Made by a program: the position numbers and the translations under genes. From positions 1-6,238 of the IMG/VR virus record IMGVR_UViG_2534682159_000005: a stretch of DNA of 6,238 nt; one strand, 5' to 3'. Origin of the DNA: a virus. Lineage: Duplodnaviria > Heunggongvirae > Uroviricota > Caudoviricetes. Numbering within the stretch: the first letter of the stretch is position 1; each line of letters starts with the position of its first letter. The notes under the pieces are model-generated. The model did no database searches. It had not been told where the DNA came from and saw only the letters and a list, made by a program, of their open reading frames with translations. Shown here piece by piece: positions 1 through 6,238 of this stretch.

Positions 1-324
1 GTCCACCAGATACTGGCTGGCCACGTACAATATTGATTTCATCAAACTGCTCATCGTCCATTAACAACCCCGCGTGCGTCAGCGCATCCAGCGGTGCTTT
101 CAGAATATTGTCCAGGTCACGGCGGCGCTTATCCGGTGGCTCTGCAATAATTTTTATTGCCAGCCGTCCGGACAGGCTTAATTTCAGTCGCTGCTGGCGA
201 ACAATAAGCGCCACTGCCCGGCGATAACCGCTCCCCGGCTTTTGATACAAAAATATGTGCTGCCACGGCGTCGCCAGTAAGTGTTCACCGTCGGCGGGTA
301 AGGTAAAACCAAATCTATGAGCAT
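1..324 (-). pseudogene. rusA: RusA-family Holliday-junction resolvase, reading frame apparently broken by two +1 frameshifts; 3' end runs off the window start
   Basis: Minus-strand ATG at 324-322 preceded by AAGAGG. The N-terminus MLIDLVLPYPPTVNTYWRRRGSTYF resembles the RusA N-terminus (LPWPPSNNRYYR..RG) and this frame stops at TGA 186-184. RusA-like sequence continues in the next frame (FVSKAGER) and then the third frame (YRRAVALIVRQQRLKLSLSGRLAIKIIAEPPDKRRRDLDNILKAPLDALTHAGLLMDDEQFDEINIVRGQPVSGG, open to position 1). This implies an extra base in the T5 run (plus-strand A-run 249-253) and another near 223-228. Confidence 0.55.
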
Positions 325-336
325 CAGTCACCTCTT

Positions 337-1386
337 TTACCCGAGCACGCCAGTCGCAAAGGCGTGATCAAGAAAACGAAAAATTAACTCAATCTGAGAG
401 CCGTACTTTTTCTCAAACTCCTGCGGGTCTGCATGAAGTTCGTTGTGGTGCTCCCGGCACAACGGTAGCGTGAAAATATCGTGGGCCTTTGTTCCCATTC
501 CCCCCTGACCATGACCAATCAGGTGATGCGGATCGTCAGCTGGCTTACCACAACACGCACACGGCTGTGTCTTTACCCAGCGCGTGTATTTCTCATTAAC
601 CCAACGGCGACGTTTAGGCCGCCTCATGAACGATTCAGGAGACTCCGGATCAACGGCGATACTGACAACCGTTTTTTTCTGTGGTGGATTTTGTTGCTGG
701 TGGACGTGAAGTGGCAGCGCAATATTTTTTGTGCGCTGCTTCAGTATGCTGATGGCTGTCTGTTCTCCCGGTACGATGTCACTCTCACGGTATACGGAGC
801 GGATTTTTTCCGCTGGTAATCCCAGCGAACGACGCGCTACTGCCTCAGGTAGTGCATCCACCACCTGATTGCAGGCCGCCCACCAGGATAATTCGGCCAG
901 CGATAACTCCCTCTCCTGCGTACCGCTTATTGCGTGACGGATGACATCAATCATCCAGGCAACCAGATTCTGCTGAGCAAGTTGATCGAGTGATTCTGAT
1001 GTCTGGTCGCGCAGCTGGTTGTCACAGTGCCAGCACAACACCATCGCGCCGGTACCATAACGGTGAATGACTGTTTCGCTGTGATGATAATCGCCGTGTG
1101 GCCACTGGCAGGATTTCACGTGACGTAATAACCAGTCAGACAGTGCACCTGCACCACCTGCTGCACGAATAACCCGCTCATCGCTGAAAAATGGCAGTAA
1201 TGTTTTATCCTCTGCCAGCGGCTGGCGAACGGCAGGAACGACTCCGGACGGCAGACCGCGCATGTTTTTCGGTTCCGGCTCCACCAGCACCCTGCCGCAA
1301 TGAAAAACAGGCCGTGATTCGCGTCCGGGCTTAAGGACCACCAGGCCAAGTTCCGGCACCAGAACAGGTCGAAGTAATACCCGCAC
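337..1386 (-). CDS. ydfU: YdfU-like DUF968 prophage protein (349 aa) with C-terminal Cys/His HNH-like zinc-binding motif
   Basis: 349-aa ORF from GTG at 1386 (GGAGG 4 nt upstream) to TAA at 339-337. The C-terminal motif CACCGKP..DPHHLIGHG..CREHHNELH is typical of DUF968/HNH-like prophage proteins. Length and position beside hokD and a Q-proximal resolvase match the Qin prophage ydfU; the symbol is from recollection, not a search. Confidence 0.75.
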   Translation of the reverse strand: MRVLLRPVLVPELGLVVLKPGRESRPVFHCGRVLVEPEPKNMRGLPSGVVPAVRQPLAEDKTLLPFFSDERVIRAAGGAGALSDWLLRHVKSCQWPHGDYHHSETVIHRYGTGAMVLCWHCDNQLRDQTSESLDQLAQQNLVAWMIDVIRHAISGTQERELSLAELSWWAACNQVVDALPEAVARRSLGLPAEKIRSVYRESDIVPGEQTAISILKQRTKNIALPLHVHQQQNPPQKKTVVSIAVDPESPESFMRRPKRRRWVNEKYTRWVKTQPCACCGKPADDPHHLIGHGQGGMGTKAHDIFTLPLCREHHNELHADPQEFEKKYGSQIELIFRFLDHAFATGVLG

Positions 1387-1387
1387 G

Positions 1388-1660
1388 TTACCTCCAGATA
1401 CGTTGCTGGAATGTGCGGGACGGACGCGGTGGATGTTCGGAATAAGGGAGCCTGACAGAGATTATCCAGTGACGATAATCGAGGCTGATGGCTTTCTTAA
1501 CCTCGTATCCGCGCCTGCGGTAACACTGAATCAGCCATTCGGCCTGTTCTTCAGTGCATGGGGGATGCTGGTACCAGTCGGTTTTAAATACGTGCGAATG
1601 CCGCCCCCGCTTAATGGCCGGGACGGCTTCAGAATTGTGGGATTTTATACGTTGCGCCAT
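1388..1660 (-). CDS. Small prophage protein of unknown function (90 aa from ATG 1660; the ORF extends to GTG at 1678)
   Basis: ATG at 1660-1658 preceded by GGAGAA with 4-nt spacing. The stop TAA 1390-1388 sits 1 nt before the ydfU-like GTG start, and the GGAGG for that gene lies in its last codons. Occupies the slot that rem holds next to hokD/ydfU in the Qin prophage, but the sequence identity is not verified. Confidence 0.55.
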   Translation of the reverse strand: MAQRIKSHNSEAVPAIKRGRHSHVFKTDWYQHPPCTEEQAEWLIQCYRRRGYEVKKAISLDYRHWIISVRLPYSEHPPRPSRTFQQRIWR

Positions 1661-1710
1661 CGGGTTCTCCGGTGACACAGCAGGTGCCAGTTGTTCAGGC
1701 CGGCGTGCGA

Positions 1711-1740
1711 ATTGTAAACCAGAATGCCAGGAAAAAACAA
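1711..1740 (-). promoter_or_regulatory. Candidate sigma70 promoter for the 90-aa/ydfU-like/rusA transcription unit
   Basis: Minus strand TTGTTT (1740-1735), 18-nt spacer, TACAAT (1716-1711), about 50 nt upstream of ATG 1660. The -35 is weak and overlaps the U-tract of the hokD terminator. Confidence 0.2.
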
Positions 1741-1758
1741 AACCCGCAGAAGCGGGTT
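1731..1758 (-). terminator. Rho-independent terminator downstream of hokD
   Basis: Minus strand AACCCGC-TTCT-GCGGGTT followed by TTGTTTTTT (7-bp GC-rich stem, 4-nt loop, U-tract). On the plus strand the same hairpin has no following T-run, so it is oriented for minus-strand transcripts. Confidence 0.7.
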
Positions 1759-1761
1759 AAG

Positions 1762-1786
1762 TGCGGGTGCGTTGAGGATGCCTGAC
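1762..1786 (-). promoter_or_regulatory. 3' UTR element complementary to the hok mRNA 5' leader (fbi-like fold-back element)
   Basis: Plus-strand 1761-1777 GTGCGGGTGCGTTGAGG is the inverted repeat of plus-strand 2140-2154 CCTCAAGCACCCGCA (15 of 16 with one bulge, extendable to about 25 nt with mismatches). Both lie inside the predicted hokD transcript. Confidence 0.45.
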
Positions 1787-1797
1787 ACATCAGAGGT

Positions 1798-1819
1798 GGC
1801 GAGGGATTTCTCCCTCGCC
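1798..1819 (-). other. Perfect 9-bp stem hairpin with tetraloop immediately 3' of the hokD stop codon
   Basis: Minus strand GGCGAGGGA-GAAA-TCCCTCGCC begins 8 nt after the hokD stop. No U-tract follows, so it is more likely an mRNA structural or stability element than a terminator. Confidence 0.4.
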
Positions 1820-1826
1820 GGGTCTC

Positions 1827-1982
1827 TTACTTCTCAGATTCGTAAGCTGTGAAGACAGCGACCTCCGTCTGGCCGGTTCGGATTCGTACCTCGCAGAGGT
1901 CTTTCCTCGTTACCAGTACCGTTACAACGACGGTAATACAGATGACGATCAGGGCGATTAGCATCGCCTTTTGCTGCTTCAT
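1827..1982 (-). CDS. hokD: Hok/Gef family type I toxin (51 aa), HokD/RelF-like
   Basis: MKQQKAMLIALIVICITVVVTVLVTRKDLCEVRIRTGQTEVAVFTAYESEK: single transmembrane helix followed by the conserved RKDLCEVRIR..EVAVF..YE Hok signature, near-identical in pattern to HokD of E. coli K-12 as I recall it. ATG at 1982-1980 with AGGAG 8 nt upstream. The track ORF (1827..2039) extends 19 codons upstream in frame, probably not used. Confidence 0.85.
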   Translation of the reverse strand: MKQQKAMLIALIVICITVVVTVLVTRKDLCEVRIRTGQTEVAVFTAYESEK

Positions 1983-1995
1983 AGCCTGCTGCTCC

Positions 1996-2024
1996 TTGCC
2001 TTTCGGCGCATAAGAGGCTAATCT
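1996..2024 (+). promoter_or_regulatory. Candidate antisense promoter at the hok start region (possible Sok-like antisense RNA)
   Basis: Plus strand TTGCCT (1996-2001), 17-nt spacer, TAATCT (2019-2024). It would drive a transcript antisense to the hok leader (about 2031 onward). No clean terminator was found, so this is weakly supported. Confidence 0.2.
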
Positions 2025-2130
2025 AAGTGTGCAAGTCATAGATATGGCCTCAGATTAATGTTAAGCGTCCTGCAAGACGCATAATGTTAACTGGGGCTTT
2101 TCTCTGTCTGCCTTACGTCGGCATGCCCGA

Positions 2131-2154
2131 GGCAGACAGCCTCAAGCACCCGCA
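2131..2154 (-). promoter_or_regulatory. 5' leader element of hokD mRNA complementary to the 3' UTR (tac-like fold-back element)
   Basis: Minus-strand leader TGCGGGTGCTTGAGG (2154-2140) pairs with the 3' UTR segment at 1762-1777. It lies just downstream of the candidate -10 TAGAAT and is followed by a 9-bp stem hairpin (2139-2104). Confidence 0.45.
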
Positions 2155-2157
2155 GCA

Positions 2158-2185
2158 ATTCTACTTAACTCTTCTTTCCCCGCAA
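2158..2185 (-). promoter_or_regulatory. Candidate sigma70 promoter for the hokD mRNA
   Basis: Minus strand TTGCGG (2185-2180), 16-nt spacer, TAGAAT (2163-2158). The predicted start near 2151 coincides with the 5' complementary element and gives a transcript of about 420 nt to the terminator at 1731, the size typical of hok mRNAs. Confidence 0.4.
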
Positions 2186-2192
2186 ACCGTTT

Positions 2193-2276
2193 TTATCCCC
2201 AGCGGCAAATCGAATACACCACCAGCGCCACCGCCATTGCAATTCCTACCGTTATGAACGCTTCAGGCCAGGTCAT
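2193..2276 (-). CDS. 27-aa hydrophobic single-helix peptide, translationally coupled to the upstream 171-aa gene (absent from the ORF track because of its size)
   Basis: MTWPEAFITVGIAMAVALVVYSICRWG. The ATG at 2276-2274 overlaps the TGA stop of the 171-aa gene (ATGA). It has a hydrophobic core with a basic/aromatic C-terminus and a TAA stop at 2195-2193. Confidence 0.45.
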   Translation of the reverse strand: MTWPEAFITVGIAMAVALVVYSICRWG

Positions 2277-2788
2277 CGTAAAATATTCTCCTCGTTTATC
2301 AGTCCGTTTCGCTTCAGGTAGTCCATCGCCTTATCCGGTAATTTGCAGTCCGGCTTCGCTTTTTTCAGTTGGCTGACCAGCCGTTTAACCCACATTGCTA
2401 ATTCGCTAACCTGATTGCCGGATGCTGGTGGATTGTCGGCTTTACCCAGAATGGCAGCACAGCAGGCCTCTCTGAGCACCCAGTCAACAGCATCCTTCCA
2501 TGCTCCTGTTTCGACTGGCGGATTCTCACGCTTTACCTGTTCATAAAAGCGCACAGCTTTAACCAGTCCTTCTGATGTCACCGGGACTGGCGGGCCGATG
2601 AATAAGGCCTGAATTTCATAGTTCGGCCTGTCGTTACAATCCTCTTTTGTCGGTACATATTTCCAGTCACCAGCCCACTGCTTCCCCTGAAAGTCTGTAA
2701 CGTCTTTTTTCACGTAGCGATATCGCCATGCAACTGGTTTTGCCTGCCCTGCCGTTTCATGCCCTTCCTGATAATTAATCTCGCTCAT
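2273..2788 (-). CDS. Hypothetical prophage protein (171 aa)
   Basis: ATG at 2788-2786 overlaps the stop of the upstream 58-aa gene (ATGA). Trp/Tyr-rich N-terminal half and a CC pair; no family recognised. Confidence 0.7.
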   Translation of the reverse strand: MSEINYQEGHETAGQAKPVAWRYRYVKKDVTDFQGKQWAGDWKYVPTKEDCNDRPNYEIQALFIGPPVPVTSEGLVKAVRFYEQVKRENPPVETGAWKDAVDWVLREACCAAILGKADNPPASGNQVSELAMWVKRLVSQLKKAKPDCKLPDKAMDYLKRNGLINEENILR

Positions 2789-2961
2789 TCATCGCCCCAC
2801 TCATCACAATATGCTTCGACCGGAGTTTTTCCTGCTTCATAGTCATCACGCCATGCTTCAGCATCGGCGGCACTTCCACCACGTAACTCTGCATAGTCCA
2901 TTAACAGTTCATGCCATTCTTCAAAACTGACGTTGTATTTAGTTGAACCAAAATCAGCCAT
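2785..2961 (-). CDS. Small acidic protein (58 aa), absent from the ORF track
   Basis: MADFGSTKYNVSFEEWHELLMDYAELRGGSAADAEAWRDDYEAGKTPVEAYCDEWGDE. ATG at 2961-2959 with AGGA 8 nt upstream. Its start overlaps the end of the 60-aa gene by 8 nt and its TGA stop overlaps the ATG of the 171-aa gene. Confidence 0.5.
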   Translation of the reverse strand: MADFGSTKYNVSFEEWHELLMDYAELRGGSAADAEAWRDDYEAGKTPVEAYCDEWGDE

Positions 2962-3136
2962 TTTGTTCTTCCTCTTCGTCTTTTATTTCGTGATATGAGT
3001 AATTGCAGTAGTTAAAGAAAATTTCTTTTGCTTCGTCATGAATTTCATCAGGTGTTGCGTCATCGTCCACTTCGAATACATCCTCAAAATCTCCACCGGC
3101 TATTCCCGTTTCAATAATTATTTTGAACTTTCGCAT
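2954..3136 (-). CDS. Small highly acidic protein (60 aa), AT-rich gene
   Basis: MRKFKIIIETGIAGGDFEDVFEVDDDATPDEIHDEAKEIFFNYCNYSYHEIKDEEEEQNG. It is the first ATG in frame after an upstream stop. GC content is visibly lower than the flanking genes, and a 92-bp intergenic region with a palindrome lies upstream. Confidence 0.6.
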   Translation of the reverse strand: MRKFKIIIETGIAGGDFEDVFEVDDDATPDEIHDEAKEIFFNYCNYSYHEIKDEEEEQNG

Positions 3137-3208
3137 TTCATTACCGCCCTGCCGGGCGGTCTCCTGATGTTCTGAGGGTGCAGAAATCCCTCCTGTTAAG
3201 GATTAATT

Positions 3209-3223
3209 TTTAGCAGTGCTAAA
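3209..3223. promoter_or_regulatory. 15-bp palindrome TTTAGCA-G-TGCTAAA in an AT-rich intergenic region (candidate operator/promoter element)
   Basis: Perfect 7-bp arms around one central base, in the 92-bp gap between the 118-aa gene stop (3229) and the 60-aa gene start (3136). Flanked by A/T-rich sequence with -10-like hexamers (TAAAAT). Confidence 0.35.
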
Positions 3224-3228
3224 TTTAA

Positions 3229-3585
3229 TTATTCAGTTCTGGATTTTGTCGCCCTGCGTATCCGCGCTTTCGCGTTACGCTCAATCTGAATTAGCTTTCC
3301 TATATTTTTTCGCCTTTCCTGTTCCTCCAGGCGCAATAGCTTTACATCATCTGCCAGTCTGGTTTCTCTTTTCGCCACAGAGAGCATCCAGTCAAACGGC
3401 TCCACAACTGAACCGCAGATTTTACAGCGGACCTGACGCTCTTTTTCGTCAACCCGAACAGAGGCGTGATGACAATATGGTCTTTCCGATGGCTCATAAA
3501 GAAAATTAACCTGATTACGAGGGTCATCCTCTTTTACCGGAAATAAAACGATATTGCTTAACTCATCCTCTGGTTTTATTTCCAT
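3229..3585 (-). CDS. Zinc-ribbon protein with basic coiled-coil tail (118 aa), function unknown
   Basis: ATG at 3585-3583 with AAGGAGAGGAG just upstream. C-x-H-H ... C-K-I-C-G spacing suggests a zinc ribbon, and the C-terminus is Arg/Lys/Glu-rich. Overlaps the end of the upstream gene by 23 nt. Confidence 0.7.
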   Translation of the reverse strand: MEIKPEDELSNIVLFPVKEDDPRNQVNFLYEPSERPYCHHASVRVDEKERQVRCKICGSVVEPFDWMLSVAKRETRLADDVKLLRLEEQERRKNIGKLIQIERNAKARIRRATKSRTE

Positions 3586-4024
3586 GCTCCTCTCCTTTGA
3601 TGCGAATGCCAGCGACGCGTAATGCGTGTTCTAGGTCAATCAGGTAAAGCCAACTGCCATTTTCTTTAGGTATCATGACTTGTCGCTCATCTGCATTTAT
3701 CGGGTGTCCATATCGAAGGTCGTAGCGAGTCGGTAATTGAACTTCCCGCGCTTCCAGTTCAGCAATGCGCTTACTCCCATCCGAGATAACACCTTCGTAA
3801 TACTCACGTTGCTCGTTGAGTTGTGATTTTGCTTCTTCCAGTCCATCCAGCAAATCAGCGATAATATCCGCTTCCCGATGACGGATGTGACGCTTAAACG
3901 CAGCAAGAGCCGCATCACAATCCCGTTCAGCATTTGGGCTGTCCGGGATAGCCTGATACCACGCCAGCGTCGACTGATAGTTTTGTGCTGCCTCACGAAG
4001 CGCCTCATAGTTAACCTCTCTCAT
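3563..4024 (-). CDS. Ea22-like (ead/Ea22-like family) coiled-coil prophage protein (153 aa)
   Basis: The ATG at 4024-4022 overlaps the TGA stop of the DUF4406 gene (ATGA). The N-terminal NYEALREAA and central AELEAREV coiled-coil segment resemble Ea22-like prophage proteins; assignment is from memory. Confidence 0.65.
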   Translation of the reverse strand: MREVNYEALREAAQNYQSTLAWYQAIPDSPNAERDCDAALAAFKRHIRHREADIIADLLDGLEEAKSQLNEQREYYEGVISDGSKRIAELEAREVQLPTRYDLRYGHPINADERQVMIPKENGSWLYLIDLEHALRVAGIRIKGEEHGNKTRG

Positions 4025-4317
4025 TGAGCCACCTCCTGATAAATCACCGCATGCCCCAGTTTCTCCGCCAGTGCCAGCTCTGCCTTAGCACCCGCTGACC
4101 GCTGCCAGCCATTCAGCATGTAAATCGCATCCACACAACGAATCATTGCCATGCAAATATCCATGTAGTGCGGCTGTGTCAGCCCGTCCGGAAGTACTGC
4201 CGGGTTTAAGACGGTATGCCCTTCCCGTTTCAGTGCTTCTTCCGCCCTGTGAAATGCCTCGCGGTTGAAATTTTCATATCCCGTCATTGGACCGGCGATA
4301 TAAATTCTCACCCTCAC
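4021..4317 (-). CDS. DUF4406 protein (nucleoside 2-deoxyribosyltransferase-like fold), 98 aa
   Basis: MRVRIYIAGPMTG..FNREAFHRAEEALKREGHTVLNPA..YMDICMAMIRCVDAIYMLNGWQRSAGAKAELALAEKLGHAV matches the DUF4406 signature (IAGPMTG, NPA, LxGWxxSxGA). The GTG start at 4317-4315 has AGGAGG 8 nt upstream and overlaps the TGA stop of the HTH gene (GTGA). Confidence 0.85.
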   Translation of the reverse strand: MRVRIYIAGPMTGYENFNREAFHRAEEALKREGHTVLNPAVLPDGLTQPHYMDICMAMIRCVDAIYMLNGWQRSAGAKAELALAEKLGHAVIYQEVAQ

Positions 4318-4595
4318 GCCTGAACCCTCCTGTCGAAATAAACGTAGTTATTCACTATGCGCAGCGGCATGCCTAATTTTCTGGCAATTTCCCTTCTTTG
4401 CATGCCTCTCTGATGCAGTTGCCGCGCCAGCTCAATATCACGCTGAGAATATTTTGCCGACGGGTGAAAATCACCACGTAACATCATGCTGATGCCCAGC
4501 TCCCGTGCCTTCGTTCTCACTGCCGCTTCAGTTCGTCCGATAAGTGCGCCAATGCTTTTTACCTTCATCGTTCCCGCACACTGCCGGAGTATCAT
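4314..4595 (-). CDS. Small helix-turn-helix DNA-binding protein (about 93 aa); start uncertain
   Basis: Two HTH-like segments (KSIGALIGRTEAAVRTKARELGI and MQRREIARKLGMPLRIVNNYV, the second resembling NinH/Fis-type HTH). The track ORF starts at 4718 inside the upstream gene. Candidate starts are ATG 4595, ATG 4568, or GTG 4631 (which overlaps the upstream TGA stop). Confidence 0.55.
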   Translation of the reverse strand: MILRQCAGTMKVKSIGALIGRTEAAVRTKARELGISMMLRGDFHPSAKYSQRDIELARQLHQRGMQRREIARKLGMPLRIVNNYVYFDRRVQA

Positions 4596-4627
4596 GATTT
4601 CCGCCCGGCACCACGTCTTCCACCCAC

Positions 4628-5344
4628 TCACCGCTGCTGTTCTCTGGTGGCGGTAATATCCCGGAGAATATCCCGGCACTTGTTCAGCTCCCGCAGCGCG
4701 GCGCAGACTCGCTCCCACTTCTGAACCTGACCTTTTGCCCGGCGCAGCTCGCGGTTAGCCACATGCAGCGATGGTAGAATCAGGTCATCTGCTTTCGTTT
4801 CGGTGACCGATGGCTGTAACTTCACAATGTCTTCCACGATTTCTGTTTTCATTTCTTCCTGTGTCGTCGTTTCCTGGACTGGTAACGCAACACCTGCTGG
4901 CTGAGGAAAGGCTTTACCATCGGTTTCCGCTACGGATGCAGCTTCCGGCTCTGCCGGTAAATCAGCGCCCGGTATGCAGTAACGAAATTTACCGCCCTGA
5001 TTCACGCGAATCAGACGCCCTTTGCTGATTGCCATGGCCAGCGATGAATTCGCCCGGCGGGAGGTAATCCCGAACATCAGTGCCAGCTCATCCGCCGTTT
5101 GTGGGCCATGTTGTTCAATCGCCTCAGTCAGCATTTGCGCTGTCACTTTCGGTACCGGTGACACTGGTTCACTTTCACCTGCCTGAGTCAGCCACCACAT
5201 CGACCCCTTGTTATCCGCTTCACCACGGCGCTTCAGTTTCCACAGTTCGTTGACCGCATCTTCACGGCTGATTCCAAGGCGGGCCGCCACTACCTGTGAA
5301 GAGGCTCTTTTCAGTGCTTTCAGTGCGTCAAATACGGTTTCCAT
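4628..5344 (-). CDS. Prophage protein with two winged-helix-like domains and an acidic linker (238 aa)
   Basis: The track ORF starts at TTG 5362, but ATG 5344-5342 has GGAGG 8 nt upstream. Two HTH-like segments ([25 protein letters not shown] and [31 protein letters not shown]). Sits 33 nt downstream of the P-like gene, the slot occupied by ren in lambda. Confidence 0.7.
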
Positions 5345-5377
5345 TAAAATTTCCTCCGACAAAATCGTTTCCCAGAT

Positions 5378-6040
5378 TCAAATAAAACCAGCAGCCTTCC
5401 GGCGTTCGTATTCCTGTTTCAGCCGTTCAATTGGCGTTGGCCCTTTCGGGTGTTTCGCCCCTTCCAGTTGTCGTCGCACTGGCGGAACACTCATCCCGTT
5501 ACCAACATGCTTTGCCCATTTCGTCAGTTGCCGTTCCGCAAGTCGTTTTAACTCACCCTGCGTCATCTGGCGCTCAATCCCTCTGGTACGCATTTCGAGG
5601 CAGATGTGGTACAGCACAGGCTGTGGCCACGGGTATTTATCACTCCCGTCGTATCGCCAGGATTCATTGCGCCAGCGCCGGTACTCTTCCATCACGGCAT
5701 CCACCGTAAGACCAAATGGATTTGCCCCACTCTCCGAAATCAGCGCAACAAACTCAGCCAGGTCCGGGGGCCACGTTTCACCCGCCCGGCAGCGGTCCAT
5801 GCACTGACGACAGACCTGCCGGATTTGCTGTTCAGTCATCGCACCAATCTGGGCAATCCAGAGCTTCGAAGGTGCGGCCCCGTTCTTCTGAGTCCAGCGG
5901 TTCGAATACACCTCCCCCATAAGCTCCCACAGCTTCCAGGCCGTTTCCGTTGCTGATAAATCCGTTTTCACGTTCCCACTGTTCGCGTGCTGCCCGGATT
6001 TCCTGAACTGCCCGTGATGCCGTGCCACCTGATGCTGCAT
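5378..6040 (-). CDS. Lambda P-like replication protein (DnaB helicase loader); N-terminal boundary uncertain
   Basis: The C-terminal two thirds align by motif with lambda P (P..FVA.. segment, then YPW...Y...M....T..EL.R.A..L). ATG 6040 has AGGGGG 6 nt upstream, and an alternative ATG at 5920 has GGGAG upstream. The 5' 209 nt overlap the upstream gene in another frame. Confidence 0.7.
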
Positions 6041-6238
6041 GGCTTACCCCCTTGCTGACTGGTTTTACCTGTGCCCTGACGTGCTGCACGTGACGGGCAA
6101 ATTTCTGCTCCCACTGAACCTGCGTGAAAACCTTCCCCTCCGCCATCCAGTAATCCCGGAATGCGGCAAGCTCAGCAGGTGTAAATTCCGGCTCAGGCAG
6201 AGCCATACCCCACACTGCTGCCCGTTGTCGAAAATCCG
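5832..6238 (-). CDS. Replication initiator / replisome organiser with DnaT-like C-terminal domain (partial; 5' end beyond the window)
   Basis: The frame is open to the window edge. [42 protein letters not shown] closely parallels the E. coli DnaT C-terminal domain ([41 protein letters not shown]) as I recall it. It lies immediately upstream of the P-like gene, the position of O. Confidence 0.7.

Follow-up and report, generated by a model that had tools for sequence, protein, structure and literature searches.

We analysed a stretch of 6,238 nucleotides (the window) from a virus of the Caudoviricetes, positions 1 to 6,238 of the IMG/VR record IMGVR_UViG_2534682159_000005, and focused on two consecutive open reading frames (ORFs) on its minus strand that encode small, strongly acidic proteins of 60 and 58 amino acids (aa), here called A60 and B58. 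A60 and B58 are real genes under purifying selection, and they belong to two separate families of mobile elements that keep their acidity over long evolutionary distances. Based on their charge, predicted folds, genomic context and distribution, we tentatively infer that each is a stand-alone acidic inhibitor that would bind a nucleic-acid-binding protein, most likely one of the host.

The original prediction, made from the letters of the window, had described two small ORFs rich in Asp and Glu, with aromatic residues, at positions 2785-3136 and with an overlapping stop and start. The coordinates proved exact to the base, and the residue counts agree with the description. A60 (MRKFKIIIETGIAGGDFEDVFEVDDDATPDEIHDEAKEIFFNYCNYSYHEIKDEEEEQNG) contains 8 Asp and 11 Glu against 4 Lys and 1 Arg, giving a net charge of -14 and an isoelectric point (pI) of 4.06, together with 8 Phe, Trp or Tyr residues. 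B58 (MADFGSTKYNVSFEEWHELLMDYAELRGGSAADAEAWRDDYEAGKTPVEAYCDEWGDE) contains 7 Asp and 9 Glu against 2 Lys and 2 Arg (net charge -12, pI 4.05) and 9 aromatic residues. The window has 48 ORFs of 40 aa or more, of which these two are by far the most acidic, with net charges per residue of -0.23 and -0.21 for A60 and B58 compared with -0.06 for the next most acidic ORF. The stop of A60 and the start of B58 do overlap, by the 8 nucleotides ATGGCTGA, and of the 158 loci with both genes, most retain this overlap. The arrangement implies that translation of the two genes is probably coupled; the putative Shine-Dalgarno-like sequence ahead of B58 is made of Glu codons of the acidic tail of A60. The 58-aa ORF had been said to be missing from the ORF track, which is true of that track only, as RefSeq annotates B58 as a 'hypothetical protein' (WP_000753060.1) and A60 as a 'DUF7167 family protein' (WP_001224672.1).

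Conservation as coding sequence was one of the points on which the original prediction was to stand or fall, and both ORFs are conserved in this way. When E. coli prophage alleles were compared pairwise with the window allele by the method of Nei and Gojobori (NG86), the ratios of nonsynonymous to synonymous substitution rates (dN/dS) were 0.00-0.21 for A60 and 0.00-0.23 for B58, with dS up to 0.3-0.9; the A60 estimate is unbiased because its set was not picked by A60 identity, and the B58 set was chosen partly on protein identity. Distant B58 pairs, from Enterobacter-type prophages and Kuttervirus Det7, agree with purifying selection, and the distant relatives show dN of 0.10-0.47 with dS saturated or very high. 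Homologues of each protein range down to ~30-40% identity with length and acidity retained, and the exact A60 and B58 sequences are each present on at least 1000 public contigs. That the two are spurious or decaying ORFs without function might be argued from some A60 alleles with frameshifted C-terminal thirds. However, dN/dS values of ~0-0.2, homologues across the phages of Enterobacterales, Aeromonas and Enterococcus, and the conservation of core and acidic columns already refute this idea, which we regard as having practically no chance of being right. The frameshifted alleles themselves (P0049, P0050, P0052, P0063, P0067 and P0072) keep the N-terminal β-hairpin and the acidic loop intact, and one C-terminally frameshifted allele was found on 107 contigs. 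Either the C-terminal part of A60 is dispensable or the gene decays recurrently.

The original prediction recognised no family for either protein, a statement that does not hold for A60 and holds for B58 only as far as Pfam and NCBIfam models are concerned. A60 matches Pfam DUF7167 (PF23768) with an E-value of 2.4e-14 and 53.6 bits (cut-off 24.4), residues 2-53 aligning to profile positions 1-60 of 60, and matches PHROG 1997 over its full length (E 2e-30); it is thus a full member, with no difference from this uncharacterised family. Klebsiella homologues of A60 likewise match DUF7167, and the A60 profile search returned ~125 clusters of stand-alone proteins of 55-60 aa in Escherichia, Klebsiella, Citrobacter, Serratia and Yersinia. 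B58 matched no Pfam or NCBIfam model but does match PHROG 519 (E 4.5e-23), residues 1-58 covering only part of the profile (positions 76-137 of 143). B58 and Det7 gp16, a PHROG 519 protein with a net charge of -10, are homologous, with 59.6% identity over residues 10-56, and the family extends to 554 plasmids, which lie outside the coverage of PHROGs. An exhaustive HMMER search of 1.84 billion representative proteins gave 65 clusters of the B58 family at 50% identity, nearly all of them stand-alone proteins of 48-70 aa. No enzyme, defence or DNA-binding family was matched by A60 or B58 in Pfam, NCBIfam or PADLOC, and in PADLOC nothing was found at E ≤1 for A60, B58 and four neighbouring proteins.

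Acidity is a property of both families. The 62 full-length DUF7167 members have net charges of -7 to -17 and pI values no higher than 4.53, and the B58 family has a mean net charge of -9 with pI typically between 4.0 and 4.6. In a 37-sequence alignment of the A family, the conserved core consists of F4, V6, I8, F21, V23, I32, A36, F40, C44 and Y46, and positions 9, 19, 22, 24-26, 30-31, 35, 38 and 50 as well as the tail are invariably acidic. The conserved core of B58 consists of F13, W16, L20, A24, W37, Y41, G44, P47, W/Y51 and W55, with invariably acidic positions at 14, 15, 33, 35, 40, 42, 49, 53 and 54, so that conserved acidic columns interleave with conserved core residues in both families.

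AlphaFold2 gave usable models for both proteins from shallow family alignments. The A60 model (predicted local distance difference test score, pLDDT, 77.9) consists of strands at residues 2-9 and 16-23, a helix at 29-40 and a strand at 45-51, followed by a low-confidence acidic tail that is predicted to be disordered. The B58 model (pLDDT 80.7) is a three-helix bundle with helices at residues 13-27, 34-42 and 47-55, whose fold matches were generic helical bundles only, such as AAA+ lids and UBA and CUE domains. Neither model had a relevant fold match in the PDB, and Foldseek searches against BFVD returned only small uncharacterised phage proteins with E-values above 0.03. Likewise, single-sequence and profile searches of the PDB gave nothing meaningful for A60 or B58, and sequence searching revealed no DUF7167 relative whose structure has been solved. 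The A60 model bears a weak resemblance in fold to T7 Gp2 and T4 Dmd, which may serve as a lead.

The two genes travel together only in part. In the E. coli-type module, both are present in 158 of 169 loci, whereas elsewhere each is found separately. Their adjacency is therefore linkage by descent within one mosaic block, and the two are not a functional pair. An obligate A60-B58 pair was rejected, as was a conserved third partner, since the flanking proteins on plasmids and phages are unrelated. Relatives of B58 occur in 198 phage records and those of A60 in 18. B is found alone in prophages of the Enterobacter type, where an Ead-like gene precedes it and DUF551-like or ASCH genes follow, in lytic Ackermannviridae (e.g., Kuttervirus Det7 gp16), in the Autographiviridae Enterobacter phage phiKDA1, between DNA polymerase and 5'-3' exonuclease, and in Jilinvirus Arya and Lastavirus ZX1. 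A is found alone in a Klebsiella prophage, in Klebsiella Guernseyvirinae directly upstream of a DUF2800/PD-(D/E)XK exonuclease, a single-stranded DNA-binding protein and DNA polymerase A, behind the GamL, exonuclease and RecT genes of a lambdoid pL operon, and in early gene clusters of Enterococcus Herelleviridae. Strict A-family sequence patterns run against genome contigs were too strict and gave only 3 loci. Three records carry host labels that are likely due to mislabelling or contamination. Actinobacillus phage vB_Apl-pPE4 (PP818812.1) and a contig of a Collinsella metagenome-assembled genome (L087) carry the E. coli prophage module with 95% DNA identity and 95% protein identity to A60, respectively, and the B58-family score of Enterococcus phage Efm 3-10 (OR844942.1) is identical to those of copies from Kuttervirus, a Salmonella/E. 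coli phage.

On plasmids, the B family is far better represented, with relatives of B58 on 554 PLSDB plasmids, 516 of which are typed as conjugative, compared with 15 for A60. About 410 of the B-carrying plasmids are of the IncI2 type and encode an 88%-identical protein (WP_000753050). There, genes for a CaiF/GrlA-type regulator and then DUF1187 precede the B gene, and SPFH, NfeD and type IV secretion genes follow it. DUF1187 (71 aa, basic) takes the place of A60 in NZ_CP011294.1 (locus L176, 8793-9177) with the identical ATGGCTGA overlap. Since the overlap is the same with a different upstream gene, the last codons and stop of the upstream gene belong to the B module. One further protein, P0149, is a DUF1187-B fusion or a frameshift product. 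In plasmids of the MOBH type, the B gene lies within long co-oriented arrays of small ORFs, 8 kb after mobI in an Rts1-like Providencia IncT plasmid, and together with hok, an orphan S-adenosylmethionine (SAM)-dependent methyltransferase and mazEF in a Klebsiella oxytoca plasmid. From one plasmid to another, the proteins flanking B show no relationship, nor are they related to the neighbours in the prophage. The B family is thus an independent module that passes between phages and plasmids.

The location in an early operon, as originally proposed, was borne out. At 99.9% identity, the window corresponds to a prophage in E. coli O91:H21 FWSEC0008, which is integrated beside yccA, combines a Rac-type immunity region (racR, YdaS/YdaT-like) with DnaT-like and P-type replication genes, and carries stx2c downstream. 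On the coding strand, A60 is preceded in order by the replication genes, DUF1627, a helix-turn-helix (HTH) protein, DUF4406, an Ead/Ea22-like gene and a 118-aa zinc-ribbon protein, and is followed by B58, a 171-aa protein (PHROG 660), hok/sok, a 96-aa protein, DUF968 and rusA, after which come a DUF1133 protein, a methyltransferase, tRNAs and stx2. Based on this gene order, A60 and B58 lie in the nin-like delayed-early region, between the replication genes and rusA/Q, of a lambdoid Stx2c prophage of the Rac type. A consensus scan of positions 1700-4400 gave no promoter-like site, and no promoter or terminator was predicted from the replication genes to hok, the sole terminator-like hairpin being located after hok. 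A60 and B58 are thus predicted from the sequence to be co-transcribed with the delayed-early genes. The 551-bp segment around them matches 2528 of 5426 complete E. coli genomes (~47%), with up to five copies per genome.

In the reading that we favour tentatively, and that may well be correct though we stop short of expecting it, A60 and B58 would be two independent accessory proteins of mobile elements. Each would be a tiny fold, β-β-α-β in A60 and a three-helix bundle in B58, with a hydrophobic and aromatic core and conserved Asp and Glu residues over the surface. They would act stoichiometrically, the conserved acidic face binding and blocking a basic, nucleic-acid-binding surface of a partner protein; such action is most likely because neither protein has a catalytic, membrane or DNA-binding feature. 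The most probable target would be a host protein encountered early as the DNA of the element enters or replicates, and candidates include a nuclease, a restriction or RecBCD-type enzyme, a nucleoid protein and RNA polymerase. With copies on temperate phages, lytic phages and conjugative plasmids, the B family is spread as one would expect of a factor that acts generally in establishment or counter-defence, and an anti-defence role of both proteins would be plausible. In T7, the small inhibitors of host proteins gp5.5, gp5.7 and gp5.9 are encoded between DNA polymerase and exonuclease, and gp5.9 is ~50 aa long and very acidic. The B homologue of phiKDA1 and the A homologue of Guernseyvirinae resemble these inhibitors in position only, whereas gp5.9 is a helical coiled-coil dimer and no sequence or fold test of it against A60 or B58 was positive; the positional parallel may be taken as a lead. 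We consider a more ambitious version doubtful. Here the B58 family, found on both kinds of phage and on conjugative plasmids, would be a new and widely mobile class of ~55-aa three-helix acidic inhibitors that neutralise a DNA-targeting enzyme of defence or repair common among enterobacteria; DUF7167 would represent another small inhibitor, unrelated to the first and similar in fold to Gp2 and Dmd, and the module would stack two counter-defence genes under one coupled leader.

Several points weigh against an inhibitor. Neither protein shows homology to any characterised inhibitor, and acidity alone predicts function weakly. Homology of A60 to Gp2 and Dmd was rejected at the sequence level, as comparisons of the DUF7167 profile were insignificant for both, including that with T4 Dmd, which is an antitoxin. 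The IncI2 B gene lies past repA, ~15 kb from the mobC/relaxase end on the presumed leading side, and its transcription runs away from the presumed oriT, an arrangement that seems unlike a classic leading-region gene with zygotic induction. Furthermore, neither family appears in the accessible parts of the supplements of EVADES (268 anti-defence proteins) or of the study of plasmid leading regions by Samuel et al. 2024 (PMC11541004). The accessory-gene screen by Silas et al. 2025 does not list them in its accessible supplements either. A literature search gave no mention of DUF7167, PF23768 or either WP accession, and one on the IncI2 operon with the B gene gave nothing useful. PHROG 519 appears in the literature only as an anti-CRISPR protein predicted by PaCRISPR in Kuttervirus genomes, which is a machine-learning score (PMC9409062).

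Among the alternatives, the original prediction had pointed to DNA mimics of the Ocr/ArdA type, which would block type I restriction-modification or the bacteriophage exclusion (BREX) system through the DNA-binding groove. A60 and B58 share with Ocr (T7 gp0.3) and ArdA a small size, a conserved pI of ~4, a place on mobile elements and, as predicted here from the operon position, early expression. Like ArdA and Ocr-like proteins, the B family is carried by phages as well as by conjugative plasmids, and the copy on the Klebsiella oxytoca MOBH plasmid is near an orphan methyltransferase and hok. However, the two proteins are only half to one third the size, and neither model shows the elongated helical dimer of Ocr or the three-domain fold of ArdA with a DNA-like array of carboxylates. 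The structure prediction and fold search that had been proposed as a check yielded models resembling neither protein, with no match to these families in Pfam at E ≤0.1 and no relevant PDB match in sequence or fold. None of 32 B-family members matches the Ocr or ArdA Pfam families. We consider it improbable that one or both proteins are such mimics. A role in the element's own biology, in which A60 and B58 would be acidic partners or anti-activators tuning an element-encoded basic DNA-binding regulator or a replication or recombination protein, is also unlikely, though somewhat less so. It would fit the IncI2 B gene, which stands after the CaiF/GrlA-type regulator and DUF1187 in one string ahead of the transfer genes, the A-family genes that adjoin exonuclease or recombination modules, and the window itself, where the neighbours include the basic zinc-ribbon protein (118 aa, pI 8.8) and HTH proteins. 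A dedicated partner would nevertheless be expected to travel with the gene, and no neighbour is conserved across contexts for either family.

The resemblance in fold raises the further idea that A60 is remotely related or functionally analogous to T7 Gp2 and inhibits host RNA polymerase through the beta-prime jaw. Here hhalign gave a probability of 0.2-0.3%, A60 has no match to PF16857 whereas Gp2 itself scores 4e-28, and RAM/ACT-like domains score equally well or better against A60. Gp2 depends on Arg56 and Arg58, while the A-family alignment has no conserved basic column after position 37. A constitutive RNA polymerase inhibitor would also be odd within the delayed-early operon of a temperate phage, and we give this idea very little credence. 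Just as remote is a moron, that is, prophage defence or superinfection-exclusion cargo that benefits the lysogen and is not counter-defence. The region is a known mosaic site for accessory cargo in lambdoid prophages, and the hok/sok module is located just downstream; yet PADLOC gave no match, both families occur in strictly lytic phages, and expression from the repressed prophage is unlikely because no promoter of their own is predicted. Mechanisms outside these readings take the small remaining share. The inhibitor reading is thus the one we retain, and the features of the window that bear on it are collected in Table 1.

Table 1. Features of A60, B58 and their surroundings, in window positions.
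Feature	Position	Strand	Description
A60	2954-3136	-	ATG to TGA, 60 aa; DUF7167 / PHROG 1997; RefSeq WP_001224672.1
B58	2785-2961	-	ATG to TGA, 58 aa; PHROG 519; RefSeq WP_000753060.1
A60 stop / B58 start overlap	2954-2961	-	8 nt, ATGGCTGA; B58 ATG within the last A60 codons; read from the sequence
Putative Shine-Dalgarno-like site of B58	2970-2974	-	GAGGA, 8 nt upstream of the B58 ATG; read from the sequence
B58 stop / downstream gene start overlap	2785-2788	-	4 nt, ATGA; downstream gene 2273-2788, 171 aa, PHROG 660
A60 leader	3143-3165	-	AGGAG, 7-bp GC hairpin, 6 nt, then A60 ATG; from RNA folding
hok/sok	1741-2151	-	Hok/Gef coding sequence (PF01848) 1827-2039 as listed; sok RNA (Rfam RF01794) 1977-2151, 113 bits
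Terminator-like hairpin	1741-1758	-	Downstream of hok
118-aa protein	3229-3585	-	Zinc ribbon
96-aa protein	1388-1678	-	Ahead of DUF968
rusA	1-324	-	Insertions at 228 and 249

The leader hairpin upstream of A60 is conserved over 36 upstream variants, most of which have a GAAA loop, and one base pair is fully compensated (CCACCC/GGGTGG). It is still present where the sequence farther upstream is exchanged. The hairpin may draw the distant Shine-Dalgarno sequence toward the start codon or may mark a recombination boundary.

As for the neighbouring genes, the 118-aa protein combines a zinc ribbon (CxxC...CxxC) with a C-terminal helix that is very basic, belongs to PHROG 1621 and weakly matches the TFIIB zinc ribbon. 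The 171-aa protein downstream of B58, which is swapped for another gene in a minority of loci, has a DUF551-like C-terminus. It gave 2-5 tandem matches in more than 30 viral loci (among L002-L081), where it lies downstream of the B58 homologue, suggesting tandem duplication or mosaic repeats. The 96-aa protein shows a weak match to GIY-YIG (E 0.01). Compared with the O91:H21 prophage, single-base insertions at the two positions in Table 1 shift the rusA reading frame twice and disrupt the gene in the window, which reflects either a pseudogene or errors of sequencing. The early regions of two related prophages (L090, 5479-5748; L172, 6242-6481) encode HOT-like homologues of the theta subunit of DNA polymerase III.

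Both families were already known, as uncharacterised ones; what is added here is that A60 and B58 are real genes, independent of each other, with predicted folds and a distribution across elements. The module with both genes is carried by ~47% of complete E. coli genomes, Shiga-toxin prophages included. The interest rests mainly on the B58 family, which has no Pfam model, occurs on lytic and temperate phages and on conjugative plasmids, and is part of the backbone of IncI2 plasmids, identified in the literature as the commonest vector of mcr-1 (PMC8053102). Taking the independent modules, predicted folds and cross-element distribution into account, the B58 family is the better experimental target. 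Should A60 or B58 turn out to inactivate a defence or repair enzyme of the host, this would bear on how Shiga-toxin phages and resistance plasmids establish themselves in new hosts and would provide a new inhibitor scaffold of very small size. Otherwise, the two would simply count among the many small phage proteins that are uncharacterised.

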